Positions 14,139 through 55,491 of a DNA stretch of 64,000 nucleotides are shown here, in pieces. This DNA comes from a virus. How positions within the stretch are numbered: position 1 is the first letter of the stretch; each line of letters opens with the position of its first letter. The stretch is taken from IMG/VR virus record IMGVR_UViG_3300031722_000011, positions 1 through 64,000 of that record, one strand, 5' to 3'. The notes under the pieces were generated by a model. The model saw nothing but the letters and a program-made list of their open reading frames with translations. It was not told where the DNA came from and made no database searches. The position numbers and the translations under genes were made by a program.

Positions 14139-14256
14139 TAGGGATAAATTTTGAGGTCGCTCCTCATTATTGATAAGGCTATTTTATCAATCGGTAGCTT
14201 TCCCTACTTGCAATAGATTGGTAAATAAATTAAAATATAAGGAGATTGATAAAATG
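14139..14256 (+). ncRNA. cloverleaf leader RNA (c4/CI-like), copy 1
   Basis: outer stem TAGGGA/TCCCTA, hairpin TGAGG-TCGCT-CCTCA, hairpin GCTAT-loop-GTAGC; loop TTTATCAATC complementary to 14216-14225 and 14244-14253. Confidence 0.65.
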
Positions 14257-15165
14257 ATAGGAATTTACAAAATTACAAATAAGATTAACGGGAGAGCGTA
14301 CATAGGACAAAGTAAGAATATAGGAACACGATGGAGCAATCATATAAACAGACTTGAATGTAAAAAACACGAAAACAAAGAACTGCAAAAGGGTTTTAAT
14401 AATTTTGGATACTTTAATTTCTCCTTTGAAATTATCGAAGAGTGTCAAGAAAAAGAATTATTATCTGTGGAACTAAAATATATTAACCTTTATCAAGGCA
14501 ATAGTTATAATATAACAAGTAATTCTAATAGTACTCTTTATGTTGATAATTTTAAATTTAATAAACATATAAATATTAATTTAAATTATAATATTTTATC
14601 TCAAAGAGTAATTTTAACAGCATTAAAGAAATATTATGAAAGAAATACTAAAGAAATAAATATAGCATGTAGTGATATAATGAAAGAATATGATTTTGAT
14701 CACTCGATATATTATAAAGGTATTCAAAGAATATATGATGAAATATCGCATTGTGAATTATTTGAACAAGTATTAATTGAAAATTCATCTATTTTTAATT
14801 TGAAATTTAATGAGCAATATTACTTTTTAGCTAAATTGTTTTATGATAATAATATAATAGACAGTACAAAGAATTTTATAAGACGTGGTTCGTTGAATTT
14901 ATATGTAAAGATATTATGTAATAAGTTAAAGTTATATTATCATTTGGAAGATTTTAAAAGAGAATACAATATAAATGAATTACCTTCATATAAACATTTT
15001 TCAAACATTAAAAGAATATTATTAATACCAATGATTGAAGAAATAGAACTAGTATTAAATAAAAATATAATTATCGATGAACAAAAAGAAAGAGGAAAGA
15101 TTGTAGGATTTAATATTATTACATCAAATACTCTACAAGAAACGCATTCTATACCCTCAAATTAA
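14254..15165 (+). CDS. GIY-YIG endonuclease fused to a Rep_3-like winged-helix region
   Basis: MIGIYKITNKING..YIGQS..RW..H; C-terminal EDFKREY..SYKHFSNIKRILLIPMIEEI..KERGKIVGFNI resembles initiator WH2. Confidence 0.75.
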   Translation: MIGIYKITNKINGRAYIGQSKNIGTRWSNHINRLECKKHENKELQKGFNNFGYFNFSFEIIEECQEKELLSVELKYINLYQGNSYNITSNSNSTLYVDNFKFNKHININLNYNILSQRVILTALKKYYERNTKEINIACSDIMKEYDFDHSIYYKGIQRIYDEISHCELFEQVLIENSSIFNLKFNEQYYFLAKLFYDNNIIDSTKNFIRRGSLNLYVKILCNKLKLYYHLEDFKREYNINELPSYKHFSNIKRILLIPMIEEIELVLNKNIIIDEQKERGKIVGFNIITSNTLQETHSIPSN

Positions 15166-15467
15166 AGCCTTACTTAGTCACAGGTATTAGTTGTTGTCTA
15201 AAAATGGAACGCCTTAGAGAGTTAAATGAACGCAAATAAAGCCTATATATAAATATATGACAAGAGTAGTAGAAAATATTACTCTTATTTTTATGTTTTT
15301 GATTATTATTATAACTACAGTATTTATATAGGAATTGTATTAGAAATGTTTTTTACAAAGTTGGTAATTGTACCTTAAATAATAAATTAATGTATAAACG
15401 ATTGACAAATATTAAGTATTGGATTAATATGGTATTAGAAAGAAAAGAAAGGAGGGAGAGTATTTGG

Positions 15468-16403
15468 ATGAAAGAAGTAAAAGGTATATTCAACAATAAA
15501 CCATTTTCAATGATACCAAATATATTTGTAAAAAATATTGATGGTGAAGATTGCATAATGAATGAAAAGCAATTAGCTATAGCATCTATTATTTATATGA
15601 CTAGGAGTAGTAAAGATGTGTGCATTTTCAGTATAAATTCCATATGTGATAACTTAGGACTAGCATATAACTCAAGGATAAAGAAAACTATAATAGATAC
15701 ATTGCAACTATTAACTGATGAGGATCAAGTTCATTTCAAAAGTAAAATATATTTAAATGATGATTATACTATTAAACATTTAAATATATTAAAAGCCAAT
15801 GATATTATATATGGACAACTAATTAATCATATGGATGGAGATTTTTGTATGTTTTGTGATTTAGATATAGATAAATTAGTAAAATATTCAATTGATAACG
15901 AAGTTGACTTATATTATTTAGTAAAACAATACATATACATATGCAGTTGTCTAAATAAAGATGAGAAATGCGAAGATTATTTATGTGCATATCCAAAATT
16001 AGATAGTATAGCTAATGCTTGCAATATAAAATCCAAAAATACAATTGTAAAATATAATAGTATCTTTAAAGAGTTAAAAATATTTAGTTTTGATTATGCA
16101 GGATATAAAATTGACAAAAATGGAAATGAAACAATAAGGAATGGAGTAATGTTTTATACTCCTTATGGCAATGAAGAAATATTATTACAACGTCTAAAAA
16201 TAGATAGAGATAAACATGGGTATTATAAAGTGAGTAATAAGTATAAAGAACTTATGAATTTGCAAATATCCATAAGTAAGAAAATAACTAATATTAACCA
16301 ATTAAAGGATAAGTCTATAATAGATTTAGAAAAATTAAAATTATTAGAACAAGAAAAAGAAAAAATAATTGAAATGATAAAAGAAGAAAAATTACCATTG
16401 TGA
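15468..16403 (+). CDS. putative second replication initiator (tandem wHTH)
   Basis: FSMIPN start, AYPKLDSIANAC.IKSKNTIVKY HTH; followed by phased repeats. Confidence 0.5.
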   Translation: MKEVKGIFNNKPFSMIPNIFVKNIDGEDCIMNEKQLAIASIIYMTRSSKDVCIFSINSICDNLGLAYNSRIKKTIIDTLQLLTDEDQVHFKSKIYLNDDYTIKHLNILKANDIIYGQLINHMDGDFCMFCDLDIDKLVKYSIDNEVDLYYLVKQYIYICSCLNKDEKCEDYLCAYPKLDSIANACNIKSKNTIVKYNSIFKELKIFSFDYAGYKIDKNGNETIRNGVMFYTPYGNEEILLQRLKIDRDKHGYYKVSNKYKELMNLQISISKKITNINQLKDKSIIDLEKLKLLEQEKEKIIEMIKEEKLPL

Positions 16404-16496
16404 ACGAAAAGTTTTTCGTGAATCAATAATTCTCTATTGTATTAATATTTATTATATGGATATGTATTATATTTAATATATATTGTTACGGTACAG

Positions 16497-16610
16497 TACA
16501 GGACTACTTTTCGTACAAATTAATTTCAAAATGTACAAAAAGTCGGTCAGTAATTTTTAATAAAGTACAAAAACCAGTCCTGTAAAATTTAGATATGTAC
16601 AAAAAGTAGG
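16497..16610. repeat. iteron-like repeats (GTACAAAAAGTNGTCCTGTA consensus)
   Basis: direct copies at 16533, 16565, 16597 (32-bp period), inverted copy 16497-16516, AT-rich stretch upstream. Confidence 0.7.
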
Positions 16611-16660
16611 AATTTGACAGTTTTAGTTAAAATAAAATATGAAAAGGAGATTTTATAAAA

Positions 16661-17545
16661 ATGAATAAAACAGAATACAAATTACATTATAATAATTTTG
16701 AAGAATTAAAAGTAAAAGGTGTTTATTTGATAAAGAATAAAGATAATGATAAATTAAAAATAGGTATAACCAATAATTTAATGAGAAGGTTAAGTGAAAT
16801 AAAAAAGAGTTTTCAATTTTGTGGAGTAATTCCAGAGTTAGATATAGAATGTTATATTGAATATAAACATAATCTAGAATTAGAACAATATTTACATAAA
16901 GAATTAAAGGAATATAATTATCAGAATGAATGGTTTAGTATTGATAATATAGATATAGTATTAGAAAAATTAAATGATTTTAAATATGAAAAAGAACTCA
17001 AAGAAATTAAACCATTAATTAAAGAAAATTTTAATATACCTGAAGAAAATAATATAGATAAATTTATGGTAAAATCAATGAAATACTATTTATATAACCA
17101 TTATGAGTGGCATGACTGTAAGAATTATACAAGATATAGTATTTATATAAAATGTAATGGAGACGAGTGGACGGCATGTAGTATGATAGATGATATACAA
17201 GGAGATATATTTCATGATTGGAATTATTTCACGCATTGTTATGAAAAAGAACGTTATAATAAATTTGATGCTAGTGATGAATTAATAGATAAATTCAAAG
17301 AGTTAAATACTAACGCAATAATAAAAACAGAAAATGGAAATATAAATAGTTTAGAAGATCACTTTATACAAAAGTATAATAATTATTTATCAAATACATT
17401 AACCGATATTAAAGATTATATAAATAATACAGACGTTGAAATAGAGAATACATATGATATATCATTGAAAAGAGTTAAATTAGAAGAAAAAATTGAATAT
17501 CTAATTAATAGAATGAAAACCATTAAAGAAAACTTAAGCATGTAA
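16661..17545 (+). CDS. T5orf172/GIY-YIG-like nuclease domain protein
   Basis: GVYLI..KIGIT..RRL..LEQYLH..NEWF. Confidence 0.8.
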   Translation: MNKTEYKLHYNNFEELKVKGVYLIKNKDNDKLKIGITNNLMRRLSEIKKSFQFCGVIPELDIECYIEYKHNLELEQYLHKELKEYNYQNEWFSIDNIDIVLEKLNDFKYEKELKEIKPLIKENFNIPEENNIDKFMVKSMKYYLYNHYEWHDCKNYTRYSIYIKCNGDEWTACSMIDDIQGDIFHDWNYFTHCYEKERYNKFDASDELIDKFKELNTNAIIKTENGNINSLEDHFIQKYNNYLSNTLTDIKDYINNTDVEIENTYDISLKRVKLEEKIEYLINRMKTIKENLSM

Positions 17546-17564
17546 CAAATTAATGTATAAAATG

Positions 17565-17593
17565 TTGACACAAAACCCAAAATATGTTAGAAT
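17565..17593 (+). promoter_or_regulatory. sigma-A promoter
   Basis: TTGACA-17-TAGAAT with TGn extension. Confidence 0.65.
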
Positions 17594-17678
17594 AATATTA
17601 TGGACAAGATAGTAGATATTTACTTGATTTCCAAAATGATAATAAATTAATATAAAGATAATAAAGGAGGTGAGAGTT

Positions 17679-17885
17679 ATGAATAATGTAATAAAGTTTG
17701 CATCATTTAAGTCAAGAAAGGTTGAAGTAGATTTATATGAAACTAAATTAGCTAGATTTTGTGAGTTAAAGCCAAAGAACTTTAGTGATACTTTTGAAGG
17801 AAATGAAGAAATTGAGTTTGAAAATCTATATAACTGGTTGCAAATACATAAAAAGAACGAAAAACAAAGCAGAATGGCAAATTAA
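17679..17885 (+). CDS. hypothetical protein
   Basis: AAGGAGGTG RBS. Confidence 0.6.
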   Translation: MNNVIKFASFKSRKVEVDLYETKLARFCELKPKNFSDTFEGNEEIEFENLYNWLQIHKKNEKQSRMAN

Positions 17886-17936
17886 TAATAAAATAATGTA
17901 TAAATAAAAAATAATAAAGAAGGATGGTAAAAGAAA

Positions 17937-18158
17937 ATGACTGAAAACGGACAACCAAGCAAAAGAGAACAACATATGGATTTCGGAGGGAACATTGTTT
18001 ATAGGAAATATAGGATATGGGAAGAAAATACAGAAAGAAAAGATACTTCTTACATATATGAGGACGATTTTGACATAAAAGAAAGGATGGAGGCTATTGA
18101 ATGGGAAGAACAGTATAAGAAGAAGTGTCAAAAGATGCTAGATGAAAATAATAAATAA
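17937..18158 (+). CDS. hypothetical protein
   Basis: ORF with RBS, co-directional with neighbours. Confidence 0.55.
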   Translation: MTENGQPSKREQHMDFGGNIVYRKYRIWEENTERKDTSYIYEDDFDIKERMEAIEWEEQYKKKCQKMLDENNK

Positions 18159-18311
18159 TACATATTGAATATAAATAAATAGTACATAAGTTATTCTAAA
18201 ATTAAGAAGTGATGAACGAGTAATAAAATTGCACCTTGAAATAAGTAAGGGTTATTATTACTAATAAGTTCATTAATAAAAAGTAAGTCAAAATTGATAT
18301 GGAGGGATAAA

Positions 18312-18764
18312 ATGAATAGATATATAGGTCAGTATAGAACAGTTTGCGAATTTGACCAATCTACACTAAAACCCAATAAGGAGAATACATATATTTACTG
18401 TAATGGTGAAGGATCAATATGGAGAAGAAGTGAAGATATATTAGTTTACACCAGAGAAAAGAAGGGTATATCAAACATACTAATAGAAAATTTAAATAAA
18501 CTAGGAGTAGAAATAATATCTGATGAAAGTACAAGAGAAGATATTCAATTAGTTTTTAATGAAGGAGATTTAGGTGTAGTTGCAACATATTTTAAGGCTA
18601 GAGAAAGTGGTACAAACATTAATCCTTGGTCAAGGAAGAATCTAAATCTATTTAAATGGTTCAAAAATAACAAACAAAAGTACATAGACAATGGATATTA
18701 TAAAGTTAGCGAGGAATTAACTGATGAAGAAAAAGAGATATTTAGACAAAGGTTTAATAAGTAG
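18312..18764 (+). CDS. hypothetical protein
   Basis: GGAGG RBS before MNRYIGQYR. Confidence 0.65.
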   Translation: MNRYIGQYRTVCEFDQSTLKPNKENTYIYCNGEGSIWRRSEDILVYTREKKGISNILIENLNKLGVEIISDESTREDIQLVFNEGDLGVVATYFKARESGTNINPWSRKNLNLFKWFKNNKQKYIDNGYYKVSEELTDEEKEIFRQRFNK

Positions 18765-19161
18765 TCATGTATATAATTTTAAAGGAGAAAATGAGATAGT
18801 TTTGGGTTTAATTTAAGTTTTAGAGTGGACAAGGTAGAATAAGTCTAGTTGATAATTTAAATTAAAATAAAGCCTAAAGTATTGATTTAAGTAAATATTT
18901 TATTAATTGTATTAGTTTGAGTTATATTTAAGAATTAAAAAGAGAGTAATGCAATTTATCGTTAATCTGACTGGAATGGAAATTAGAGTCAAAAGTATGT
19001 CAAAAAGTCCTTTAAAATTATATAGGGAGTGAGTATGTAAAGAGTGTTATAATAAATTAATTTATAAATAACAGAATAAATTGCGTGTTTTATTGGAAAT
19101 TTAAAAGAGAAATAAAGGAGAAAAATGACAATATATTAATATAAATAAGTGAGGTGACGGA

Positions 19162-21952
19162 ATGTCTAAACAATTATCTAATCAGAAGAATATACTTAAA
19201 ATACATACAAAAAGACTAAGAAAAAATAATTGGAGTTTAGACTTAGCATTGGAAGAAGCTAAAAAAAATAAAGAAGTTATTCAACTAGGAGATAGCCAAA
19301 CTCTAAGATTTATTAATGAAATATTGGAAATAGAAAATCAAGATGAACAAATTAACAAAATAAAAGAAGAAATAAAGGAACTTGAAAAATTAGATAACTC
19401 CATAGAAAATAGAAAAAAAATAAAAGAATTAAATAAAAAGAAAAATGGATTGAAATTTAATCAAGATTATTTATGTTTGGTTATAGATAAAATTGGAGAT
19501 TTTGATAAATGTAATAGAAGATGTAGTTTCTTTGTAAATGGGAAACAATTTGTAAGATTATTAGGAACTACAGGTGGAATAAAAAACGAAACTATAGTAT
19601 ACGTTAGTAGAGATGTATTTGACCAATTACATAAAAAATTGGATAATGGTAGAGATTTAGATAAACCTTTAGTTCCAGCTAAATTAGAAGCATATAAAGC
19701 ATTATCTTGTAGTATGAGTGTTCCAGTTAGAGATCCAAAAAGCATATTGGTAGTAGATGATTGCATAACTCATTTCAAAGAAGATATAATACAAATAGAT
19801 GATTCTAAAGGAGAAAGACCAGTTTTAGAAATAATAAAAGATTTTGATGTTGAATTAATTGATAGTGATGGTTATGGTCTTATATCTCCACAATTAAGTA
19901 AGTTATGGGGAGTAGATATTAAAGAATGTGAATTAAAAGACAAATTTGTACCAACAGGTTTTTGTATTAGAAATGCTTTTACTAAGGGAATGGTTTTTAC
20001 ATTTGATTTTAAGAGATTTGCAAAACAAATAGCACATAAAAAAATAGTTAAAGATGTGTGGGGGCAAGAGAGAAATATAAATAAAGTTGATTTAATATTA
20101 ACTACTTCCATGCTTAAATTATGGGACAGTTATGAATCATTAGAACACTATTTAGCTTGTTGCAAAGAAAATGAATGGACTTTTAGTATTACAAAAATGT
20201 GTCCAAAAGAATTAGAAAATGAAAGAACATTAAATTATCAATTTTTACAGTCTTTTAAACTTAATGATGAAGATATTAAAGAATTAATTAAACCAACTGT
20301 AGATAGTATCAAAGACAGTTTAACAATGGACTATGCAAAAACATTACTATTCCTAAAGGGAACTAAATTGAATGATAAAAACTCATTTGTTGGAGAAGAT
20401 GATTATGTTAAAGCGTTAATGGTTGATGAAGAATTATTAAATGATCCTTATATACAAGATAGAGTATATAATATGCGAAAGAAACGTATTCAAGATGCAA
20501 AAGTTGGTGTTTTAAATATGCAAGGATGCTATGCTATAATATCTGGCGACCCCTATTCACTATGTCAAAGTATATTTGGTTTAGATGTAACAGGATTACT
20601 AAAAGCCGATGAATTATATAGTAAATATTGGTCAGATAAGAACAGTAAAGAAATAATAGCTTTTAGAGCACCTATGACATGTCATAATAATATAAGAAAA
20701 TTACAAGTAACATCTACAGAAGAAATGCAACAATGGTATAAGTATATGAAAACATGCTTGATACTAAATTCATGGGACACCACAACTCATGCTGAGAACG
20801 GTGCCTGACAAAGATTCAGATGCATTTATTACCACAGATAATCCAGTTCTATTGAGAACGTATGAAAAATTGTTGGCTATATTTTGTGTTCAAAAATCAG
20901 CACAAAAAATTAAAGTCACTGAAAAAAGTCTTATTAAAGCAAACAAAGATGGTTTCGGAGATGATATAGGTACAACTACAAATAGAATAACTGAAATGTT
21001 TGATATATTAGCTAAGTTTAAAGAAGACTCATTAGAATATAAGGAATTAATGTATCGTATAATGTGTGGACAACATTATCAACAATGTGCGATAGATAAA
21101 ATCAAGGGCATAAAATCTAATCCTATGCCTAAAGAATGGTATGATTCAAGAGTAAATAGGATTAAAGTAGATACTAATACAGGAGAAATATTGGATAATG
21201 AAGAAATTATAAAATTAAAAGAGTTTAATACAAAAATTGTAGCTGATAAAAAACCATATTTCTTTATATACATATATCCTCAATTAAAAAATTCATATGA
21301 TAAATTTATAAAAGAAACTGAAAATAAATGTATTACTCAGTTTGGAATTTCATTAAATGAATTATTCAAAAAGAAGAATAAAAATGAGATAGAAGAAAGT
21401 TTCATAAAATATTACAACTTAAAAAATCCAGTTAGTAATAATAATTGTGTAATGAATAAAATATGCAGAGAAATAGAAAGAGAGTTTAAAGGAATTAAAA
21501 ACAAATTAAACAAAACAAAGTTTGATTATACTGTTTTAAAAACAGATGAAAAATACACAAAGAATACTTATAATAAAATAAAAATCATATATGAAGAATA
21601 CATGATTGAGTTGTCACAATTTAAAATGTTGTCTAAAAAGAATAGAGTAGGTAAAGAAGATAAAAACGATGGAATGATAATATTAAAACAAAACTTCAAA
21701 GAAAAATGTCAAGAAGAATGTATTAATAAAGATGAACTTTGCAATATATTAGTTGATATGTGTTATAATACTGAAAAATCTAAACAATTCGTTTGGGATA
21801 TGTGTGGTAATCAAATAATAAATAATTTATTACATAAAAATAATTTCATTATTAACTATCCTGAATTAGATAATATTAATGGAGATGTAGAATTTGGTGG
21901 AGAAAACTTTATTCTAAATACTATTGAAATAAAGAAAGGAGAAGATAAATAA
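19162..21952 (+). CDS. yonO: YonO-like single-subunit (RdRP-related) RNA polymerase, split by a +1 frameshift at 20803-20809
   Basis: DSDGYGLIS, FCIRNAFTKG, AFRAP motifs; ORF1 ends HAENGA* and the +1 frame continues DKDSDAF, rebuilding NGADKDSD; later IDKIKG; HU and morphogenesis genes follow as in SPbeta. Confidence 0.85.
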
Positions 21953-23677: not shown

Positions 23678-24202
23678 ATGACAAATCAATTTTTAGAAAA
23701 CGAGAAAATATCTTTAGAAGATAAAATTACAAAAGCTAGAGAAGGTAATAATGAAAATACATACAAGAATTTAATTCAAGCTTATGAAAGAGTTTTAGAA
23801 TTGATTAGAAAAGAAAATGTATGGACAGATATGTATTCACATTATAAATTGAAAATTGAAGATGAGTTTCAAGACGTAGTATCTACGTGGAAGCAAAAGG
23901 GTGAAGACATCAAAGACCATAAGATTTATAAAATTGAAAAAGAAATAACAAATGATAATGAAAAAATAGGTATAGCATTAAAAAGTATGTTTGAAAAATA
24001 TCAAAGTAATGAAACTAAAAAAGCAATTGAATCTATAATAAAACGTAAAATAGATGAAGATGAAAGTTTTTATGATGTATTAAAATCTTTATCAAATGAA
24101 TGGGATGATTTTACTGAAAACAATAAGAAAAATATTAGTAGAACAATTGCAGGAATAAGAAATGAAGATTGCTTTAAAGCATTATTAGATAATTTAAAAT
24201 AA
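23678..24202 (+). CDS. hypothetical protein with a tape-measure-like C-terminal segment
   Basis: AAGGAG RBS; C-terminal WDDFTENNKKNISRTIAGIRNEDCFKALLDN. Confidence 0.65.
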   Translation: MTNQFLENEKISLEDKITKAREGNNENTYKNLIQAYERVLELIRKENVWTDMYSHYKLKIEDEFQDVVSTWKQKGEDIKDHKIYKIEKEITNDNEKIGIALKSMFEKYQSNETKKAIESIIKRKIDEDESFYDVLKSLSNEWDDFTENNKKNISRTIAGIRNEDCFKALLDNLK

Positions 24203-24308
24203 AATATAACTTTTAAGATAATAAATTAATGTATAAACAAATAGTAAATATCCCTATTAAGGGTTATAAAATAAATTAAATTAGAGAGAAGAAAGAGGAG
24301 ATTAAAAA

Positions 24309-24638
24309 ATGAGTAAAGTAAAAACAATTAAAAAGGACGAAATTTTAACAATTATTAAAGATGTATATGGATTCTCTACAAAGAAAGAAGCTGAAACTAG
24401 ATTTTGTGATTTGGATTCTTTAATAGAAGTTATTTCAAGTAATTTAAATGCTGGAGAAAAGGTTAATATAGGAAAGTATTTAGTTTTAGAAAAGAAGCAT
24501 GTGGAAGCTAAACCATCTAAGAACGGAGAAATGACTAGAGTAATTGATGGAGTTAATACAAAAGTACCTTATACTACAGAAGCTAAACCAGAACACGATG
24601 AAGTTAGACTAAAATCAACCAAACAGTTAAATAAATAA
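24309..24638 (+). CDS. HU-like DNA-binding protein
   Basis: KDEIL..TKKEAE..LNAGEKVNIG..beta arm..VRLKSTKQL; syntenic with SPbeta yonN. Confidence 0.75.
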   Translation: MSKVKTIKKDEILTIIKDVYGFSTKKEAETRFCDLDSLIEVISSNLNAGEKVNIGKYLVLEKKHVEAKPSKNGEMTRVIDGVNTKVPYTTEAKPEHDEVRLKSTKQLNK

Positions 24639-24786
24639 TAAATAGACCTTTGAGAAGGACTAGATTAGAAATAATTAGTCCTTCTTTTTATATTAATCAT
24701 AGAACTTATATTATTGTATAGGTTGTTAGTTAATATAAAACAAAAATATATACCGTATATATCGGTGGAGGGTTTGAGGGAGAATT

Positions 24787-26268
24787 ATGGGAGGAAAAAA
24801 GAATAAAGAAAATGAAATTGTAATAAGTTTAAATGGAAATCAATCACAAGAAGTAGTAGGCAGTAATATGAGCATTTCATATTTATCAGATACAGGTAGA
24901 AAATGTGTTTTAGTTGAATTAGGAATGATACAAAATAATGATATGGCTGACGAATATATACTAAATAAGGAAATGTTAAATAATATTCCTATTAAAGAGT
25001 CAGATTATTGTTTTATGTTTCATTTACATTGTGACCATATTGGGCTGTTCCCGTCGCTATCTTCAATGGGATTTAAAGGCAGGATAATAACAACAAAAAC
25101 CAATGCAATATTATCTAAACCAATGTTAAAAGATTGCATTAAGATTCATGTAAAAAATTGTGAGTATTTAAGGGAGAATAAAGATAAATTTAAAAAGAAA
25201 ATAAAAGGAAAAGTTAAAGAATTATTTGAAGAAAAAGACTTAGATAATGTAATGAGTATGATGGACGTTTATGAATTAGATAACATACATCATTTAGATG
25301 ATTATTTATCTTTTAGATTTACAAATAACTCACATATTATTGGTGCTACACAATTAGAGATTTTCATAAAGAAATTTGGAACAAATGTTGTAAAAAAGAT
25401 TTGTATTACAAGTGACTTAGGAAATACAGATAATTATTCATATACATATTTTACAGAACCAACAATTCCAGTGTCTAGTTCAAATATTCTTTTCGTAGAA
25501 AGTACATATGGATTAGGAGATAGAAATTTCAACAAGAGAATTTGTATAGAAGAAAGAAAACAATTGGAAAAAGATATATTAGGATTTGTTAATTACAATC
25601 ATTCATGTATGATACCATGTTTTGCTTTATCTAGGCTTAGCAATATGATGTGTTGGCTCTATGATACATTTAAAGATAGATGGGACATGTCTAAGCCAAT
25701 TGTAATAGCAACTAATCTAGGTAAAAAAATAAATGATAAAATGTATGAAGTTTTGGATAATGAAGACTTGGCTTATTGGGATGAAGTTATGACTTGGAAA
25801 GCTTTTAAATTCATAAATGACAACAAGAGTTGTGAAGCGTTTGTTAATTCTAAACCAAAAAGCTATTTAGTTTTAAGTTCTAGTGGGATGATTTCGGGTG
25901 GGTTTAGTAATCTATTTGTTAATCAAATGTTACAAGATTCTCATAATGGAATATTATTTTGTGGATACTGCTCGCCAAATACAATAGGTGGTCAATTATT
26001 AGATGATAGTACAGATACAGTTATTGTTGATGGCAAGACATTAAAAAAGAGATGTATTGTGAAAAGATATTATTCATTTAGTAGCCATGCATCACAAAAA
26101 GATATTATAAATTATATCAAACAATGTGATTGTCAAAAAGTAATATTACAACATGGTTCAAATGATGCAAAAGAAGAATTAAAGAAATTATCTGAAATAG
26201 AATTAAGCAAAATGAACAGAACAACAAAAGTTATTTCATCGTATAAGGATATGCAAATGACTTTATAA
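24787..26268 (+). CDS. MBL-fold beta-CASP metallo-hydrolase (probable RNase)
   Basis: HLHCDHIG, SHIIGA, TSDLG, VESTYG, SSSGM, FSSHA, QHG. Confidence 0.9.
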   Translation: MGGKKNKENEIVISLNGNQSQEVVGSNMSISYLSDTGRKCVLVELGMIQNNDMADEYILNKEMLNNIPIKESDYCFMFHLHCDHIGLFPSLSSMGFKGRIITTKTNAILSKPMLKDCIKIHVKNCEYLRENKDKFKKKIKGKVKELFEEKDLDNVMSMMDVYELDNIHHLDDYLSFRFTNNSHIIGATQLEIFIKKFGTNVVKKICITSDLGNTDNYSYTYFTEPTIPVSSSNILFVESTYGLGDRNFNKRICIEERKQLEKDILGFVNYNHSCMIPCFALSRLSNMMCWLYDTFKDRWDMSKPIVIATNLGKKINDKMYEVLDNEDLAYWDEVMTWKAFKFINDNKSCEAFVNSKPKSYLVLSSSGMISGGFSNLFVNQMLQDSHNGILFCGYCSPNTIGGQLLDDSTDTVIVDGKTLKKRCIVKRYYSFSSHASQKDIINYIKQCDCQKVILQHGSNDAKEELKKLSEIELSKMNRTTKVISSYKDMQMTL

Positions 26269-26304: not shown

Positions 26305-26643
26305 ATGGGAAAAGCAATTAAAGTAGATTATAAAGGTATTAAAGCAGAATATAAAGATGGTGAATTTAAGGGAACTCTTGAAACATTAAATGAAGAAGGT
26401 ACTGAAACTGTAGTTACTGAGGTAAACATAACAGATGAGGTAAAAGAATTATTAGCTTCACTTGAAGAAGAAGATACAATTGCAATTAATATTAAGAAAT
26501 TTAAAGAAACAGTACCAAAAGAAAAACAACCTATCTTTAAATATCATTGTAGTTGTGAAGAAAAGGAAATAAAAAGTAAAAATGAAGGTTTACATATTCA
26601 TTGTAATGATTGCGATGAAGACTTTACTCAAATTGATAAATAG
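26305..26643 (+). CDS. hypothetical protein with C-terminal Zn ribbon
   Basis: YHCSC..IHCNDC. Confidence 0.7.
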   Translation: MGKAIKVDYKGIKAEYKDGEFKGTLETLNEEGTETVVTEVNITDEVKELLASLEEEDTIAINIKKFKETVPKEKQPIFKYHCSCEEKEIKSKNEGLHIHCNDCDEDFTQIDK

Positions 26644-26699
26644 TGTAAAATGTTATTATATATAGTTCTAAGGGATTTACCTAAAAGTCCCTTTCCAAT

Positions 26700-26815
26700 A
26701 GTAGAGACAAATTAAGGAGTCATGACCTTAATTAAAATAGCTTATCTCAATCGGCTATGTCTCTATTTTATTAATGATTGAGAAATAAATTATAGAAAGA
26801 AGATTGAGAAAAATG
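26700..26815 (+). ncRNA. cloverleaf leader RNA (c4/CI-like), copy 2
   Basis: outer stem AGTAGAGACA/TGTCTCTATT, hairpin AATTAAGG/CCTTAATT, hairpin ATAGCT-TATCTCAATC-GGCTAT; targets GATTGAGA at 26776 and 26802. Confidence 0.7.
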
Positions 26816-28243
26816 AAAAAGATAAGTAGAAAAATAATTTTAGATAATTTACCTAGAATTAAAGAAAATAGAAATAAAGAACGTATAGATTGGAGAAATT
26901 CGATTGGATATACAATAAATTTTATATATGCTGAGGTAGAAGGTTCAGTTTATATAAAACAATATAATAATGACAAAAGAGATTTGGTTATTGTATATAA
27001 AGGAGAAGATTTTCATATTACATGTGATAACCTTGCAAAATGTGCTTTTGGAAAAATTTTAGGATTAATGACAAAAAACTTTAAAGTTGAAATAGGTACA
27101 AGATTTAAAGATAATAAAAGAGATATAACCATAACAGACAGAGAATATAGAAAAGATAAAAGGGGACAAAATTGGAAATGGTATAAATACACTTGCAACA
27201 CATGTAACTGGACAGAAGGTTGGGTTGAAGAAGGAAATTTGCAAAGAGGTGATAATTGTTCTTGTTGTCGTGGTCTTGTTGTTATAGAAGGAATAAACGA
27301 TATACCTACAACTGCTCCTTGGTTAATTCCTTATTTTCAAGGTGGTTATAATGAGGCTAAATTGTACACTAAATGGGGAACTGGAAACTCCAATAATTTT
27401 GGAGGTTATATAAATCCTGTTTGTCCAGATTGTATAAGAATCAAAGATAAAAAAATTAAAATTAGAGATATATATACAAATAAATCAATAGGATGTATCT
27501 GTAGTGATGGTCAGAGTTTTCCTAATAAGACAATGTTTAATATTTTAGAACAATTAGGAATAGATTTTATACCAGAATACAATCCAGAATGGATTAAACC
27601 TAAACGTTATGATTTTTATATACCTTCAATAAATAAAATAATAGAAATGGATGGACAATTTCATAAAAATAACAATCAAATGAATGGACAAACTTCCAAA
27701 GAAAGTAATGAGTTAGATGAGTATAAAGATAATTTAGCAAGAGAACGTGATATAGAGGTTATTAGAATTGATTGTGATTATCCTAACATGGAAACTAGAT
27801 TTGAATATATAAAAAATAATGTAATTCATAATAGTAGATTAAATAATCTATTTGATTTGAGTAAAATAGACTGGTTTAAATGTAACGAATTTGCTTTAAG
27901 TAATCTAGTTAAAGTAGCTTGTGACTTATGGAATAAAGGAATATATAGTATAAAAGGAATATCTAGTATTATGCATATAAATGTTACAACAACTAGAACT
28001 TATTTAAAGAATGGAACAGAAAATAGTTGGTGCAATTACAATGGTGAAAAAGAACAAAATAAAAATATTAAACAAATGGCAAGTAAAATATCTAAACCCA
28101 TAAAATGTTTAACTGATAATAAATCATTTAAAAGTATAGTTGAAGCATCAAAATATTATAATATGGGAGAATCAACTATAAGCATGGTTTGTGGTGGGAA
28201 AAGAAAAACTGCGAAAGGTATGGTCTTTGAATATGAAATGTGA
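26813..28243 (+). CDS. free-standing endonuclease: Zn ribbons, Vsr/DUF559-like nuclease, NUMOD1-like tail
   Basis: CxxC pairs; RYDFYIP..IIEMDGQFH; C-terminal FKSIVEAS..ISMVCGGKRKTAKGMVF. Confidence 0.8.
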   Translation: MKKISRKIILDNLPRIKENRNKERIDWRNSIGYTINFIYAEVEGSVYIKQYNNDKRDLVIVYKGEDFHITCDNLAKCAFGKILGLMTKNFKVEIGTRFKDNKRDITITDREYRKDKRGQNWKWYKYTCNTCNWTEGWVEEGNLQRGDNCSCCRGLVVIEGINDIPTTAPWLIPYFQGGYNEAKLYTKWGTGNSNNFGGYINPVCPDCIRIKDKKIKIRDIYTNKSIGCICSDGQSFPNKTMFNILEQLGIDFIPEYNPEWIKPKRYDFYIPSINKIIEMDGQFHKNNNQMNGQTSKESNELDEYKDNLARERDIEVIRIDCDYPNMETRFEYIKNNVIHNSRLNNLFDLSKIDWFKCNEFALSNLVKVACDLWNKGIYSIKGISSIMHINVTTTRTYLKNGTENSWCNYNGEKEQNKNIKQMASKISKPIKCLTDNKSFKSIVEASKYYNMGESTISMVCGGKRKTAKGMVFEYEM

Positions 28244-48030: not shown

Positions 48031-48123
48031 CAAAATAAAGCAAATGATTTAGTTCTTACAAATGTGTAAGGGCTTTTTTATTATATACAAAATTAAACAA
48101 AAATAAAAAGGAGGAATTTTATT

Positions 48124-49827: not shown

Positions 49828-49944
49828 AATAACATAAATTGTTCATTTTAAAAGAAATATTAATCTATATATTGTAGTGTTAATGGAGATGATACTACAA
49901 TATATAGTGTGTGAAAATAAAATAATAAATTAATATATAAAGTG

Positions 49945-49973
49945 TTGACAAGAATTTAAATTGGTATTATAGT
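49945..49973 (+). promoter_or_regulatory. sigma-A promoter of the antirepressor unit
   Basis: TTGACA with TATTATAGT -10 region, flanked by two AAATTAATRTATAAA boxes. Confidence 0.6.
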
Positions 49974-50013
49974 ATAAACATACCAATTAATAAATTAATG
50001 TATAAAACAACAG

Positions 50014-50195
50014 TAGATATATACGTATTTTTTAATGATGTTCTCCGACATCAAAATTTATTTAATGTATGTATGAGTAATTTATGACTAAGGGTAGCTC
50101 CCTTAGTCGGATTATTCTAATTAAATAAACAATGGGGAATATGATTAAAATGTATGTGAAAATACATACATTAAATAAATTATTAAAGGAGATGT
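50014..50195 (+). ncRNA. two-hairpin leader RNA (c4-like) upstream of the antirepressor
   Basis: GATGT-TCTCCG-ACATC and GACTAAGGG-TAGCT-CCCTTAGTC hairpins; loop complementary to GGGGAATA 50134 and SD GGAGA 50188. Confidence 0.55.
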
Positions 50196-50202
50196 TTCAA
50201 AA

Positions 50203-51138
50203 ATGGAACAAAACAAAATTATTAAATTATTTACAGAAGGAAAGGTACAAGTAAAAGAAAGAAAGTTCACCCGTTTATTAGGAGGGTTTTCTGAGACAAG
50301 CCCGATTGTTACAACAAAACAAATTGCAGAACTTTTAGGAAAAGAAATTAAACATGTAAATGAAAGGATCAATGCAAATATTGAACATTTTGAAGATGTA
50401 CATATTCTAGATTTAAAAGTAGTCGACCAAACCGACTACAATTTAGAAGCTCTGAAAACACTAGGTTATACTAATATGCAGATATCAAAAGCCAATAATA
50501 TTTATATTCTTTCAGAATCGGGATTTTTATTATATTTAAAATTTGCAGAAGGCGAAAAAGCAGTAGAAATATATAAAGAATTCTTAGAGGATTATTTTAA
50601 AATTAAGGCAGAAAATAAAATTTTAAAAGCAACTTTAAAAGAACAAATTTCTCAATTAAGAGATACATATTATGTTACTTTCGGAAAAGGAATTGCAACT
50701 GGTGATACAGAACTATTAATGAAGTCTCAACAAATTAACAATCAAATAATAGAATTAGAAAAACAATTAACTGAAGAATTAACTATAGAAAAGTATAAAG
50801 TATATGAAGATAAATATAATCAATTTATGGATAATGATGGTTGTTTCACTTTTGAAAATGCTAGTAAAATACTTAGTACAACCGCAAATAATAATGGATT
50901 AAAAGTAAAATTAAATAAAATATCACTACCTAAAATGCTAAGAGAAAAATGTATTATATCAAAAGATAAGAGTGGAGATAGTTATAGAAATTTACCTAAT
51001 AGTGGATATGAAGAATATTTTAATGTTACTACTCGTAATTATACTACTCCTGCTGGTGAAAATAAGTCTAAAACACAATCAACAATTACAACTAAAGGAT
51101 TAGATTTTATTTATGGGATATTAAAAGAAGCTAATTAG
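50203..51138 (+). CDS. phage antirepressor (ORF6N plus KilAC/ANT domain)
   Basis: VTTKQIAEL..INANIEHF, YILSESGF; C-terminal TITTKGLDFI. Confidence 0.85.
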   Translation: MEQNKIIKLFTEGKVQVKERKFTRLLGGFSETSPIVTTKQIAELLGKEIKHVNERINANIEHFEDVHILDLKVVDQTDYNLEALKTLGYTNMQISKANNIYILSESGFLLYLKFAEGEKAVEIYKEFLEDYFKIKAENKILKATLKEQISQLRDTYYVTFGKGIATGDTELLMKSQQINNQIIELEKQLTEELTIEKYKVYEDKYNQFMDNDGCFTFENASKILSTTANNNGLKVKLNKISLPKMLREKCIISKDKSGDSYRNLPNSGYEEYFNVTTRNYTTPAGENKSKTQSTITTKGLDFIYGILKEAN

Positions 51139-51267
51139 TAACAAATTAATAGAAATAAAACTAAACAAATGACAATATAGAAATGGACTGAAATAACGAT
51201 GAGTAAACTTAGAAGACTTTAGAAATTATTGAATTAATTCTAAAGTGTTCATTTTTAAATTAAACTA

Positions 51268-51380
51268 TTGACAGATAATAGTAAAAGAGTATAATAGTAA
51301 TTGTAAAGAAGTTAAAAACAAAATTATATAAATGTTTCATGCGATAAGATGCTTAGTTCCAGTAAGTATCTTATTTTTTA
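51268..51380 (+). ncRNA. putative type I antitoxin sRNA with its promoter
   Basis: TTGACA-16-TATAAT, ~80-nt transcript, terminator; carries a copy of the toxin start region. Confidence 0.65.
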
Positions 51381-51497
51381 TATGTAAAAAGAACTTTCTA
51401 TATTGCTTCATTACCATCTCACATGAGTTCCAGTCACGCTTTTTAATTACACAATATTTACTCGTTCTTATTTCCAACTATTAAATTTTTCGATTAG

Positions 51498-51620
51498 TTA
51501 TTTAATTATTGGGATATGTATATTTAAAACTGATGCTATCATATTAAAAAGTCCGCCTAAGAAGATAAGTACTGATTTCAACAATTCGTTATCTATAGTA
51601 AATTTCTTGCAATGTTTCAT
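51498..51620 (-). CDS. putative type I toxin (40 aa, MKHCKKFTIDNELLKSVLIFLGGLFNMIASVLNIHIPIIK)
   Basis: TTGTAA-17-TATAAT promoter, GGAGG RBS inside a hairpin, one TM helix. Confidence 0.65.
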   Translation of the reverse strand: MKHCKKFTIDNELLKSVLIFLGGLFNMIASVLNIHIPIIK

Positions 51621-51714
51621 GCCATCGCCTCCCTCCCAATTAGGAATATTCGAGATGGCAATATAATTATAACATTGTATGGAAGTAATTACAATTTAAT
51701 GGAAAATAAATTTA

Positions 51715-51900
51715 TTGTAAATAAGTATAGAATTGTGATATAATGGAGATAATAAAAAGAAAAAGCCTAGCGTTGAAGCACTAAGCTATTTCTATAAACA
51801 ATATCACGTTTTTAAAGTTTTCAAAGGACTATTGAATTGATATGTAAATGAATACTAAATCACTGAATTAGCACTACTTAGTGGGGGGTGCTTTTTTCAG
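51715..51900 (+). ncRNA. putative type I antitoxin RNA with its promoter
   Basis: TTGTAA..TGATATAAT; terminator AGCACT..GGTGCT-TTTTT overlaps the toxin 3' end. Confidence 0.55.
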
Positions 51901-52024
51901 TTGTCTCAAAATAAAAATCTTTGTAATGAATTTTAACTAGGTTTTCGGAATTTAGTGCTTTATATAAAATTAATATAATACCTAATAATTCAATTACTTT
52001 AATAATAAAATCAAACATATCCAA
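51878..52024 (-). CDS. putative type I toxin (48 aa, MDMFDFIIKVIELLGIILILYKAL...EKSTPH)
   Basis: AGGAGGTG RBS, N-terminal TM helix, charged tail. Confidence 0.65.
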   Translation of the reverse strand: MDMFDFIIKVIELLGIILILYKALNSENLVKIHYKDFYFETTEKSTPH

Positions 52025-52337
52025 TAGCAACACCTCCTAGAATTATATTTTCAATAATCCTTTGAGGTAGGAAACGTAATCAACCACCGATCCACCATAT
52101 CGGCATTAAAACAAATTAATATAAAATAAATTAATACTAAAAGGAGAGAATTAAAAATGTTATATATAAAACTATAACTATAGTTAATTTCTTTTAGTAC
52201 AAAATTAGTATACCATATATTTGTAAAAATGGATATAGTTAAATAAATATATTTGTTTATAAAATATGTAAATATTGTAACATTCCCTTACAAATGGTAT
52301 AATTAGAAAAATACTATTTAATAGGGGTTGGATAATA

Positions 52338-53093
52338 ATGAATAAAATCTTTAAAAAGTTTATATCAATAGGAATAATAGCAAGTTCAATAAGTATATTA
52401 CCTTTAACTGGGGCAAGTGCAGAATGGAAACAAGACACTAAAGGTTGGTGGAATGCTGAGGACAGTTCGTGGTCTAAAGGTTGGAAACAAATAGATGGCA
52501 AATGGTATTATTTTGGGCAAGACGGGTATATGGCTCATGATACCATAGTTGATGGATTTAAAATTGATAATAATGGAGTATGGATTCAAAATAACACTGT
52601 AAATAATACAACTGAAACAAGTACAAATGTTTCGAATACTGCTAATAGTAATAATAGTTCTAATACTAATTTAACTAGCAATGTAGATAATAGTACAAGT
52701 AGTAATGCAAGTGTAACATTAAATAATACTGGTGTGATTAATGCAAATACAACTAATAATGTAGCCGTAGATAATGTAAGTAAAGAAGAAAAAGATTATT
52801 ATAAAGCATTGAAGAAAATCCAAGAAACTAATCAACAAAATGCTCAAAATGCCCAAGATAATTTAAAGGCATATTATCAAAAACAATTAAAACAAGCAAA
52901 AGATGATTTAGCAGAAGCACAAAAAGAATTGAATAATGTCAAAGGGCAATTAACTAATAAGACATTAGTTAAACAAGCAGATGGAACATGGCAATACGTA
53001 TATGTTGCAGATACTCAAAAAGTTGCACAGTATGAAAAGAAAGTGAAATCTTGTCAAGATAATGTTGATTATTATGAAAAATTAGCTAAATAA
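52338..53093 (+). CDS. secreted cell-wall/choline-binding repeat protein (moron)
   Basis: signal peptide ..GASA|EWKQD, GWKQIDGKWYYF. Confidence 0.85.
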   Translation: MNKIFKKFISIGIIASSISILPLTGASAEWKQDTKGWWNAEDSSWSKGWKQIDGKWYYFGQDGYMAHDTIVDGFKIDNNGVWIQNNTVNNTTETSTNVSNTANSNNSSNTNLTSNVDNSTSSNASVTLNNTGVINANTTNNVAVDNVSKEEKDYYKALKKIQETNQQNAQNAQDNLKAYYQKQLKQAKDDLAEAQKELNNVKGQLTNKTLVKQADGTWQYVYVADTQKVAQYEKKVKSCQDNVDYYEKLAK

Positions 53094-53184
53094 TTCTAAA
53101 TTGATTAAGACTTTAGATATGAATGTCTAAGGTCTTTTATTGTTGTGGGAAGTTGTAAAATATGTAAGACTAGAATTTTGAGTT

Positions 53185-53667
53185 CTAGTCTTTTTCCAAT
53201 TCGTACTTTTCATCATCTAAAAATTGTATTCCTGTTTTTAATGGTTTATAATTTTTATTTAAATATTCAAATATTTCAACTAAAGATTTATTTAATTCTT
53301 CATTTTTCAATATTATTGAAAGCATCATTAAATTGTTGTCAGTATTTTTATTCAAAGGATTAGCTAATGCAAATATGTTAGAAATAAATCCTTCAAACAA
53401 ATTTATATCCATATGACCACGTTTTAATTGTGTTATTATTCCAGAATCAACCTTTGTCTTAGGAATCCATGCTAATTCACAATCTAATATATCAGCTAAG
53501 GCTTTTACCTCGGTATATCTAACTGTATCTCTATTCAATTTATTAGTAAAAGCATTTGTAGTAGTAGATATTCCATAATTATTTAACTTATCAATTATTT
53601 CGAAATATTTTAAATCACTATTGAATATATATTCTTTTAATTCTGTTTTTGTAGAGTTTTTATTCAT
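53185..53667 (-). CDS. putative HTH regulator
   Basis: NAFTNKLNRDTVRYTEVKALADILDCEL; divergent promoter region. Confidence 0.6.
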   Translation of the reverse strand: MNKNSTKTELKEYIFNSDLKYFEIIDKLNNYGISTTTNAFTNKLNRDTVRYTEVKALADILDCELAWIPKTKVDSGIITQLKRGHMDINLFEGFISNIFALANPLNKNTDNNLMMLSIILKNEELNKSLVEIFEYLNKNYKPLKTGIQFLDDEKYELEKD

Positions 53668-53743
53668 AAAAATCATCTCCTTACATTTATATTATAGCAC
53701 TAAGTGTCAATTGATACAAATATAAAAAATAATTACTAATACG

Positions 53744-53772
53744 TTGACAAGGTAACTAATGAGTGATATTAT
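53744..53772 (+). promoter_or_regulatory. sigma-A promoter
   Basis: TTGACA-17-TATTAT with TGn extension. Confidence 0.65.
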
Positions 53773-53902
53773 AAATACATAAGGTTGGTAAACAAAACCA
53801 ATCTAATAAAAATAAGGCAATAACAAAAGTAGTTATCACCTAGTATATCGCAAATATTAGTATAACACATGTTAGAGTCTAATTCAAGGGAGATGTTGTA
53901 TT

Positions 53903-54601
53903 ATGGAAAATTTTATGCAAACAGGTTTGAAAAGAGAAGCAATAATTGAGAACAATGAAGTGAGCAAGTACATTAAAGAACTGCATAAAGAATACGATTG
54001 GTTTTGTCAGTTTTACGAAATAGAAGATGTAGATTTTATAGGTAATTATGAATTGTTCTTATCTTGTGGACATGTAGAATGGAATATTGATAGGCAAAAT
54101 TTTTATTCCATTAAAGAAAATCAATTATATAATTTCTTTAGAAGATTAAAAACTGGTATTTATAGAAGTATTTTAGTTAATGATAAAGAAGTATTAATTG
54201 ATGATGATAACCTTACAGATTGTTTGTATAAAACTTTAGTTGAAAAAATAGAAAACTCAAGTATTGTTATGGGTTGTGACTCCTTAAAAGTCATACATAT
54301 ATATGGAGAAATAAGTGAACTAAAAGGATATGATGAAATGTCATATTTTGAAATATTTACAAGACAATTTTTAAATAATGAATGTGGTGAAGATTTTGGA
54401 TTGATTGTTAAAAACGATCCTTATCAAAATGAGTTTAAGGATACTCAGTTTAAAGATGTTGATGACTATTATAAGAGATGTAGTAATATAGTATTTGCTG
54501 AATATGTAGAAGAAAACAAATCAATGAATGGCAATGCTATTAGAGTTCAGTATAAAGGACGAGATGGACAAGTATTGAGTGAGATATGGCAACCGATATA
54601 A
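53903..54601 (+). CDS. hypothetical protein
   Basis: 232-aa ORF with RBS and its own promoter. Confidence 0.7.
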   Translation: MENFMQTGLKREAIIENNEVSKYIKELHKEYDWFCQFYEIEDVDFIGNYELFLSCGHVEWNIDRQNFYSIKENQLYNFFRRLKTGIYRSILVNDKEVLIDDDNLTDCLYKTLVEKIENSSIVMGCDSLKVIHIYGEISELKGYDEMSYFEIFTRQFLNNECGEDFGLIVKNDPYQNEFKDTQFKDVDDYYKRCSNIVFAEYVEENKSMNGNAIRVQYKGRDGQVLSEIWQPI

Positions 54602-54721
54602 AATTAAATATTGTTTAAATGAATAAATATGGTATAATTAGAGTATAATAAAAGAAAAAGGACGATTGCTCGTCCTATGTATCTCAGCCAGATGTAGGCT
54701 CTAATTTAAGTATTCGGCTCT

Positions 54722-54901
54722 TTACTTCAGAATATTTATAATTAGAGTCTTTATTATGTCTTGGTTAACACCATTTACAATAGCTTTAGATATCGAGTCT
54801 AATGCTAAAATAAACAATATAACTTTCCAAAGGCTTAATCCATTCTTTTTAACTGAAACTGGTTTAGTTTCGTAATCCAAATGAATACGTCTCTCTTTCA
54901 T
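54722..54901 (-). CDS. putative type I toxin-like membrane peptide (59 aa)
   Basis: GGAGGAGG RBS at the base of a long CCAAAGTATTTTA/TAAAATACTTTGG hairpin; hydrophobic segment; convergent promoter at 54611-54638. Confidence 0.55.
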   Translation of the reverse strand: MKERRIHLDYETKPVSVKKNGLSLWKVILFILALDSISKAIVNGVNQDIIKTLIINILK

Positions 54902-55363
54902 CAAAATCACCTCCTCCAAAGTATTTTACCTTAAAAATAACTTATTATATCTAAGATAAAATACTTTGGATTATGGTCGTTAGAACCATGAAAGACTACG
55001 TGATTTACTATATTGTTATAGATATTAATCTAATGTTTTAAGGTTTAATTTTGGACATGATTTGTTCAAATTCATTTTTCATAACATTTCATTTTTAACC
55101 CTTTATCTATTTTAATACAGTGAATACATTATACCATAAATTTGAAAATATAGATATTATTATTTTAATGAATTGATATTATAGGAATTGAAGAAAAGAA
55201 ATTTAGAGATAACTTTATGCATACATAACGGAATTTGAGGATAAAATTAATATAATTATTGAATTAAATGGTGAAAGACAAGAATATATTTTGGAAATAG
55301 CTTAATTAATTTAATGGTTATTTAGAGTTGATTATAGGCAGAAATGCTTTATAATATAGATAT

Positions 55364-55491
55364 GGAAGAAATAGATGTGGAATAAGGTTCGAAACTTATA
55401 TTACATTGAACGGGCTATCTCCAATTAGCTTTTCTTCCTTTTTATTAATATTGGAGAAATAAATTAAATTATATTGGAGGAATTTAGGATG
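55364..55491 (+). ncRNA. cloverleaf leader RNA (c4/CI-like), copy 3
   Basis: outer stem GGAAGAAA/TTTCTTCC, T-loop-like hairpin ATAAG-GTTCGAAA-CTTAT, hairpin GGCTA-TCTCCAAT-TAGCT; targets ATTGGAGA 55450 and ATTGGAGG (SD) 55473. Confidence 0.7.

Follow-up and report, generated by a model that had tools for sequence, protein, structure and literature searches.

Predicted three-way-junction leader RNAs with matched loop and target sequences upstream of homing endonuclease genes in a virus contig from peat

The DNA analysed here (the window) is a stretch of 64,000 nucleotides (nt), bases 1-64,000 of the 103,443-bp IMG/VR virus record IMGVR_UViG_3300031722_000011 (27% G+C, estimated to be 42% complete), in which genes for virion proteins, a head protease and several homing endonucleases were identified. 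The stretch was contained in 24 sequencing runs, all of them peat metagenome DNA. Three of the endonuclease genes are directly preceded by leaders (designated L1, L2 and L3) of one design: an outer stem encloses two hairpins, A and B, and hairpin B has a loop whose complement occurs in two direct repeats further downstream, T1 next to a AAATAAATT box and T2 at the Shine-Dalgarno sequence (SD) or start codon. The leaders look like a previously undescribed RNA device which keeps homing endonuclease genes in check, the genes in question probably belonging to a large, uncultured and lytic phage. Homing endonucleases are selfish genes which a phage must keep quiet and well timed and, to our knowledge, the RNA-level control found for them so far consists of simple hairpins that mask the ribosome-binding site (RBS) in T4-like phages. 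The features of the leaders are given below, with strand.

14105-14133, +: L1 sigma-70-type promoter (TTGACA, 17-nt spacer, TAAACT, with TG upstream; 10/12 matches)
14139-14206, +: L1 three-way junction (minimum free energy (MFE) structure identical to centroid, z = -2.55; matched by the covariance model), with outer stem 14139-14144/14201-14206, hairpin A 14152-14166, hairpin B 14177-14199 and antisense loop 14182-14194
14216-14225, +: L1 target T1 (one G-U wobble), running into the AAATAAATT box at 14223-14231
14244-14254, +: L1 target T2, after the SD (AAGGAG) and overlapping the ATG at 14254 (11 contiguous pairs)
14254-15165, +: endonuclease 1, a GIY-YIG homing endonuclease of 303 amino acids (PF01541, 6e-11; phrog_7168/314)
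26635-26701, +: L2 upstream region, with a weaker promoter-like TTGATA...TATATA (by eye; best score 6-7/12)
26671-26696, +: extra 5' hairpin of the AAGGGA...TCCCTT type
26702-26765, +: L2 three-way junction (z = -4.19; covariance model E = 3.5e-10), with outer stem 26702-26709/26758-26765, hairpin A 26711-26732, hairpin B 26738-26757 and antisense loop 26743-26752
26720-26725, +: L2 hairpin-A palindrome, TCATGA
26766-26773, +: U-rich tract after L2
26776-26783, +: L2 target T1, GATTGAGA, abutting the AAATAAATT box at 26783-26791
26802-26809, +: L2 target T2, GATTGAGA, in the RBS window, 3 nt 5' of the ATG at 26813
26813-28243, +: endonuclease 2, a phrog_4538/9084-type homing endonuclease of 476 amino acids (phrog_4538, 3e-57; phrog_9084 'homing endonuclease', 2e-19) with a core that is PD-(D/E)XK-like and an I-HmuI NUMOD-like domain at the C-terminus
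55328-55355, +: L3 sigma-70-type promoter (TTGATT, 16-nt spacer, TATAAT)
55364-55438, +: L3 three-way junction (z = -3.12; covariance model E = 7e-6), with outer stem 55364-55371/55431-55438, hairpin A 55375-55406, hairpin B 55413-55430 and antisense loop 55418-55425
55388-55393, +: L3 hairpin-A palindrome, TTCGAA (loop 55387-55394)
55439-55443, +: U-tract after L3
55450-55457, +: L3 target T1, ATTGGAGA, abutting the AAATAAATT box at 55457-55465
55473-55480, +: L3 target T2, ATTGGAGG, which is the SD, 8 nt before the ATG at 55489 (last pair a G-U wobble)
55489-56736, +: endonuclease 3, a GIY-YIG-type homing endonuclease of 415 amino acids with NUMOD1 and I-HmuI NUMOD-like domains
77,311-77,401 of the same contig: fourth leader copy, before a gene of 252 amino acids

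When the junction segments were cut to the outer stem, the predicted MFE and centroid structures both consisted of the outer stem with hairpins A and B, the apical loops being open. Every element that a preliminary description of this DNA had listed for the three leaders was found at its coordinates, and the shared architecture which it proposed held for all three; the cloverleaf shape it gave them did not, the fold being a three-way junction of three helices. A tRNA-like four-arm cloverleaf was rejected on the same ground, and ARAGORN detected no tRNA or tmRNA in the window. A hammerhead-like junction was also considered and was rejected by eye, as both the lengths and the sequences of the junction strands were a misfit. 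The extra 5' hairpin was confined to L2 and its orthologue in a related contig (G001), the other members of the family being without it. In contigs from three peat runs, the A-run in the hairpin A/B junction of L2 was one base shorter (at window 26734), and since the G001 orthologue has the same one-base difference the length of this junction varies naturally.

Because alignments of the leaders made with MAFFT were structurally wrong, a covariance model was seeded by a pair of near-identical members, 14 members being used when it was rebuilt. Related peat-phage contigs were reached through a pattern taken from the leaders and through relatives of endonuclease 3, and the model identified 21 members in five related contigs (766 kb in total). 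The three original leaders scored E = 4e-10 to 8e-6 under this model, while 1.27 Mb of unrelated phage DNA gave a single borderline match (E = 0.04) and, as a specificity control, 143 of 144 random pattern loci were rejected. In the 20-member alignment, which is model-fitted and thus favours the structure, 94% of the stem pairs were canonical, compared to 66% in shuffles and far fewer (at most 53%) when the pairing partners were slid. Double compensatory changes were observed in 15/16 stem pairs (0/500 shuffles). The whole contig was also scanned blindly for any 7-mer that recurs further downstream and is preceded by its reverse complement, which gave 7 matches on the + strand (L2, L3 and the fourth copy among them) against 0-4 in shuffles; it is the family-level statistics, namely covariation and loop/target permutations, that rule out chance. 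The preliminary description had looked to a covariance model for members beyond the original three, with stems and loop/target pairs that covary across homologues, and all of these were found.

The leaders were then compared with known RNA families. A cmscan search of the whole window against Rfam gave 0 matches at the gathering threshold, and at E <= 10 there was no match inside any leader; with the laxest filters, the four 170-nt leader loci gave chance-level matches to unrelated families only. No Rfam family, c4 and its relatives included, was therefore matched, as the novelty claimed for the leaders had implied. There was no model match in cultured-phage relatives of endonuclease 2 (Clostridium phage BG3P and Staphylococcus Silviavirus), where the upstream regions are short and contain a promoter only, and the third copy of GAGAAATAAATT in the contig, at 88,923, has no leader. 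The L1 region had no megablast match among cultured phages, among which the window has no close relative, a protein query with endonuclease 1 found no relatives in IMG/VR, and a capsid-based hunt for further relatives gave two contigs only. Two loose DNA patterns searched across IMG/VR returned chance matches only, one of these patterns being unable to match known members. Judged by these comparisons, the leaders are a structurally new RNA family, in which antisense and RBS-masking logic of a known type occurs in a new context.

The complement of the hairpin-B loop, which is 8-13 nt long, was present twice downstream in 21/21 members, and approximately 13 distinct loop sequences were found among the 18 non-redundant members. 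The mean length of pairing between a loop and its own targets was 7.7 nt for T1 and 7.4 nt for T2, compared to 4.2 and 4.6 nt with the targets of other members, and none of 20,000 permutations was as good. This own-target preference, together with compensatory switches in close homologues, confirmed the claim that the loop and its two targets vary together; between the fourth copy and the leader at G001:73562, for example, two adjacent loop bases are changed and both targets match (a triple switch). In the part that pairs, the only differences between T1 and T2 are of A against G, each opposite a loop U, so that one loop is able to pair with both, and several of the loop/target wobbles have Watson-Crick pairs on either side. 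T2 ended -1 to 12 nt from the ATG in every member, T1 always ended within one base of the AAATAAATT box and was often a better match than T2, and the starts of the two targets were 18-33 nt apart. The loop of hairpin A had no downstream complement, and a search of the contig for extra trans targets of its four loops found none at any other RBS. Although orthogonal codes had been proposed, the codes are not strictly orthogonal within a genome; two cassettes in contig G003 and two in contig G004 have a common code.

Nearly all leaders have a sigma-70-type promoter; a match of at least 10/12 was found upstream of 12/21 leaders (1.7% of random windows), and several further members had TG-extended TATAAT boxes; L2 and its G001 orthologue were exceptions, without a promoter directly at the outer stem. 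The -10 element of the leader promoters ends 8-12 nt before the start of the covariance model, and the L1 promoter ends 6 nt 5' of the outer stem. From this spacing the predicted transcript begins at the outer stem, which suggests that the 5' end there is a primary one and is not released by RNase P. A T-rich run, counted by eye, was located right 3' of the outer stem in most members, while the U-tract was weak or absent in about a third of them, L1 among these.

The AAATAAATT box was found between loop B and T2 in every member. The preliminary description had the first target running into this sequence, which was the case in all members; that the sequence belongs to the target was not upheld, since it is a genome-wide box. 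There are 40 copies on the + strand of the contig and 7 on the - strand, mostly just 5' of genes, and an open reading frame (ORF) starts within 46 nt downstream of 21 of the 40 + strand copies. The genes behind it include two virion structural genes and the head protease. We infer that AAATAAATT is probably a phage late (or middle/late) promoter box, comparable to the T4 TATAAATA. It was also observed that the box stands 13-45 nt before many start codons, and copies in the window are located at 24269, 26268, 30297, 31601, 32978, 33414, 42442, 43019, 50173 and 52124, among others.

A 6-nt palindrome was present at the apex of hairpin A in 20/21 members, compared to a mean of 5.4 in shuffles of the same composition, the loop of L1 (14157-14161) being the only one without. 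Seven palindromes were identified (TCATGA, TAATTA, TTCGAA, TTGCAA, GTCGAC, TCGCGA and TGATCA; a further example is located at L182:58-63), usually flanked by unpaired purines, and the loop GTTCGAAA, previously taken to be T-loop-like, is instead one of these seven types. Orthologous leaders at one genomic site carry TTCGAA, TTGCAA, GTCGAC or TCGCGA, so that palindromy is kept while the sequence changes. An open, self-complementary loop of 6 nt with flanking purines is a hallmark of kissing-loop homodimerisation, and as the central tetramer is self-complementary, intramolecular pairing is not a sufficient explanation. The palindromic loops suggest, as a hypothesis, that two leader RNAs join into a kissing-loop homodimer; with one B loop from each copy, such a dimer would have two identical antisense loops, and the presence of two equal targets would be accounted for. 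The likeness of hairpin A to the HIV-1 dimerisation initiation site and to phi29 pRNA is one of sequence only (20/21 members), the context being entirely different.

A leader was present at 17 of the 21 intact endonuclease matches in the five contigs, comprising 14/16 intact phrog_4538-type and 3/5 intact GIY-YIG-type genes, and the link between leaders and homing endonuclease genes thus stands. Of the three different nuclease architectures previously assigned to the genes behind L1, L2 and L3, the phrog_4538/9084-type gene is distinct, while the other two genes are both GIY-YIG-type. The leaderless endonuclease genes (L187, L188, L190 and L191, all in G001) start no more than a few bases from the preceding ORF or overlap it, and resemble promoter-less cassettes such as several of the T4 seg/mob genes.

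Orthologous sites in the related contigs were compared to follow the leaders and the endonuclease genes. Around the L1 site, this contig and G001 share flanks of 83-90% identity, and the sequence between the flanks (13,994-15,152) differs as one block, which begins just past the stop codon of the upstream gene and ends 12 nt short of the endonuclease stop codon. This swapped block contains the promoter, a leader which is homologous but diverged and has another code, and an endonuclease gene from a different family. In G003 the leader of the L3 site is conserved (78%), and the ORF behind it gives way at the ATG to one of an unrelated endonuclease family, the replacement extending to 36 nt before the stop codon. 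The proposal that the leader travels with its endonuclease therefore fits the block swap at the L1 site and fails at the L3 site. In addition, an L4-type leader is joined to an endonuclease-3-type gene in contig G002, identical codes were found before unrelated endonuclease families, and near-identical C-terminal DNA-binding domains were found with different codes. On the evidence of these alignments, leaders and endonuclease ORFs are exchanged independently and leader types recombine with other endonuclease types. Contigs from four peat runs which cover the region were fragmented and of low depth, and the cassettes were neither bridged nor cleanly deleted in them.

Two further arrangements were noted in the related contigs. 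Two leaders in G004 (L055 and L057), identical throughout and including T1 and T2, lie in inverted orientation approximately 4 kb apart (G004:186686-186770, - strand, and 190720-190804, + strand), and the genes behind them are different phrog_4538-type paralogues which diverge right past the start codon. In G002, a leader and GIY-YIG cassette (L185:6146-8429) follows sequence homologous to the inside of an ORF of 2063 amino acids (window 57757-63948), which may consequently be shorter or interrupted in G002.

The box next to T1 brings a further comparison into play, beyond those of the preliminary description. In T4-type phages, long early or middle transcripts of the endonuclease genes I-TevI, segB and Aeh1 mobE have their RBS masked by pairing with an upstream sequence, and as a late promoter is located 3' of the mask and 5' of the RBS, late transcripts can be translated (PMC2988022). 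The leaders resemble masking of this type (I-TevI, I-TevII, I-TevIII, segB and Aeh1 mobE) in that the genes are of the same class, phage homing endonucleases, in that an upstream sequence is complementary to the SD/start region (T2 with loop B, in all members) and in that the putative mask, the candidate promoter box and the RBS follow one another in the same order. They differ in that the putative mask is not a simple hairpin arm but a loop within a covarying three-way junction, making a pseudoknot-type contact, in that they have their own host-type promoter, often a U-tract, and a second target at the promoter box, and in that they constitute a recognisable family recombining over many cassettes.

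The preliminary description had drawn a comparison with the P1 c4 and P4 CI RNAs, which is apt as regards the logic, in which an antisense element acts on targets repeated within the transcript it belongs to. The c4 RNA has two loops (a' and b') for two different target sequences, and is processed by RNase P. Like P1/P7 c4, the leaders would be structured antisense RNAs just 5' of the gene to be silenced, with repeated targets of which one lies over the RBS; unlike the two-loop system of c4 (a'/b', a1/a2, b1/b2), only the hairpin-B loop has targets, and these are two equal ones. The P4 CI RNA pairs, through one antisense segment, with two sites of its own transcription unit (PMC4825925), and is excised from a leader by RNase P (PMC5499578). 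The predicted leader RNA shares with it a small, structured form with one antisense segment and two targets in the same transcription unit. The targets of CI flank the RNA (seqA upstream and seqC downstream), whereas those of the leaders are both downstream with one on the RBS; CI acts by transcription termination which maintains lysogeny, whereas the leaders precede endonuclease genes of a probably lytic large phage; and CI is cut by RNase P, whereas the leader RNA appears to start at its own promoter.

The leaders thus combine an RNA fold, loop/target complementarity with covariation, a promoter-like placement and an association with endonuclease genes. We consider it fairly probable that a self-promoted three-way-junction antisense RNA blocks the RBS of the endonuclease gene. 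Each cassette would encode a three-way-junction RNA of 65-85 nt, transcribed from its own host-type (sigma-70-like) promoter and located directly 5' of a free-standing homing endonuclease gene, and the loop of hairpin B would pair with the two direct repeats, T1 just before AAATAAATT and T2 on the SD/start codon. Pairing at T2 would occlude the RBS, so that the endonuclease would remain untranslated from leader-carrying transcripts, which would be early transcripts of the host polymerase reading through the weak U-tract past the outer stem. Transcripts initiated at AAATAAATT would be without the leader and hence free of cis-masking, as in T4 I-TevI, and could be throttled in trans by leader RNA that has built up from the strong early promoter, as in P1 c4 and P4 CI. 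In proposing this scheme we infer the production of the RNA, the repression of translation by pairing, its timing and the role of T1. The own promoter, U-tract, second target and palindromic loop go beyond the I-TevI scheme and would point towards a free, possibly dimeric small RNA with a mode of action like that of P4 CI or P1 c4 (PMC4825925, PMC5499578).

Several observations weigh against RBS masking by the leader. T1 lies outside the late transcript, touches the box and is often the better match, none of which is explained by simple cis masking, and a dedicated strong promoter is similarly unexplained if the leader masks its own transcript only. The loop/target duplexes are short (5-11 bp) and AU-rich, with T2 pairing over only 5 bp in a few members, and the folding stability of the whole leaders is unexceptional (z = -0.8, -2.2 and -0.7 for L1, L2 and L3 respectively). 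No RNA runs are listed among the sequencing runs that contain the stretch. In a few genes the SD is only 2-4 nt 3' of AAATAAATT, which is awkward for a classical -10 element and leaves the promoter status and start site of this candidate box uncertain. Finally, the endonuclease identity of the genes behind four leaders is unproven, the product of the 252-amino-acid gene behind the fourth leader giving a GIY-YIG-like alignment which was non-significant.

Alternatively, and this we entertain as a tentative possibility, most transcripts could end at the U-tract and yield a free, trans-acting antisense RNA of approximately 70-90 nt, which would dimerise through kissing A loops and whose two identical B loops would clamp T1 and T2 on endonuclease transcripts. 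One loop with two equal targets 18-33 nt apart would be explained in this way, and the palindrome in 20/21 A apices, which exists in seven kinds, is kept across orthologue changes and has a central tetramer self-complementary beyond the needs of intramolecular pairing, speaks for dimerisation, as do the dedicated strong promoter of each leader, the T enrichment past the outer stem in most members (by eye) and the open A and B loops of the predicted fold. Against it, L1 has no palindrome, L2 and the fourth copy have identical palindromes and would therefore form heterodimers, roughly one member in three has a weak U-tract or none, a branched structure is atypical as a terminator and T1 would be present on read-through transcripts only. 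A broader version, in which the leaders would be programmable self-dimerising riboregulators, that is, early small RNAs with a variable palindromic kissing loop and two B loops clamping repeats which bracket the late promoter and 5' untranslated region, appears doubtful. If it were true, a programmable dimer would act in trans, also on co-infecting relatives with the same code, and the leaders would amount to an RNA 'immunity' system for mobile endonuclease cassettes, the codes of which diversify by compensatory change.

Control at the level of transcription, as in P4 CI, would have loop B pair with T1 (and T2) of the nascent read-through RNA, just 5' of the weakly hybridising A/U-rich box, and cause premature termination or cleavage, so that transcription by the host polymerase, from the leader promoter or from upstream genes, is kept out of the endonuclease gene. 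The constant position of T1, 0-1 nt from the A/U-rich box, and its often better match are in favour of such a mechanism, as is the fact that CI RNA terminates transcription via two sites in its own transcript (PMC4825925). We nevertheless judge it unlikely, as the tract past T1 is A-rich and not U-rich, no terminator-like hairpin was predicted after T1 or T2, and the location of T2 exactly on the RBS in all members argues for translation as the controlled step. It is very improbable that the loop, T1 and T2 are DNA operators at which the endonuclease represses its own gene through its DNA-binding domain, with the RNA fold being incidental. Autorepression has a precedent in I-TevI, which represses its own late promoter via an overlapping operator (PMC2988022), T1 does touch a promoter-like box, and gene-specific sites would be expected to differ among endonucleases; the mismatch between codes and enzymes across cassettes, with a common code before unrelated families and different C-terminal domains, and different codes before near-identical C-terminal domains, argues against T1 and T2 as operators for the enzyme. 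The inverted copy is, moreover, always in the loop of a hairpin with covarying stems, and the differences between T1 and T2 are all G-U compatible.

With 21 members in five contigs, the leaders provide a new class of structured RNA for the databases, relevant to specialists in RNA and in mobile elements. Their loop/target code has been rewritten at least a dozen times, a natural case of antisense specificity evolving through compensatory change at three sites together, and a link between kissing-loop dimerisation and two-site targeting is possible. They also offer ready-made riboregulator pairs, short and apparently modular, that suit Firmicute-type expression signals, and the independent exchange of leaders and ORFs bears on how free-standing endonuclease cassettes spread.

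In four peat metagenomes, contig depth over positions 24407-26107 was 5-10 times that of the surrounding sequence, and a beta-CASP/RMMBL nuclease gene is located here (24787-26268). The gene is absent from the syntenic place in G001, where an L2-type leader directly follows the homologue of 24199-24696, and could be a module that is mobile or shared widely.

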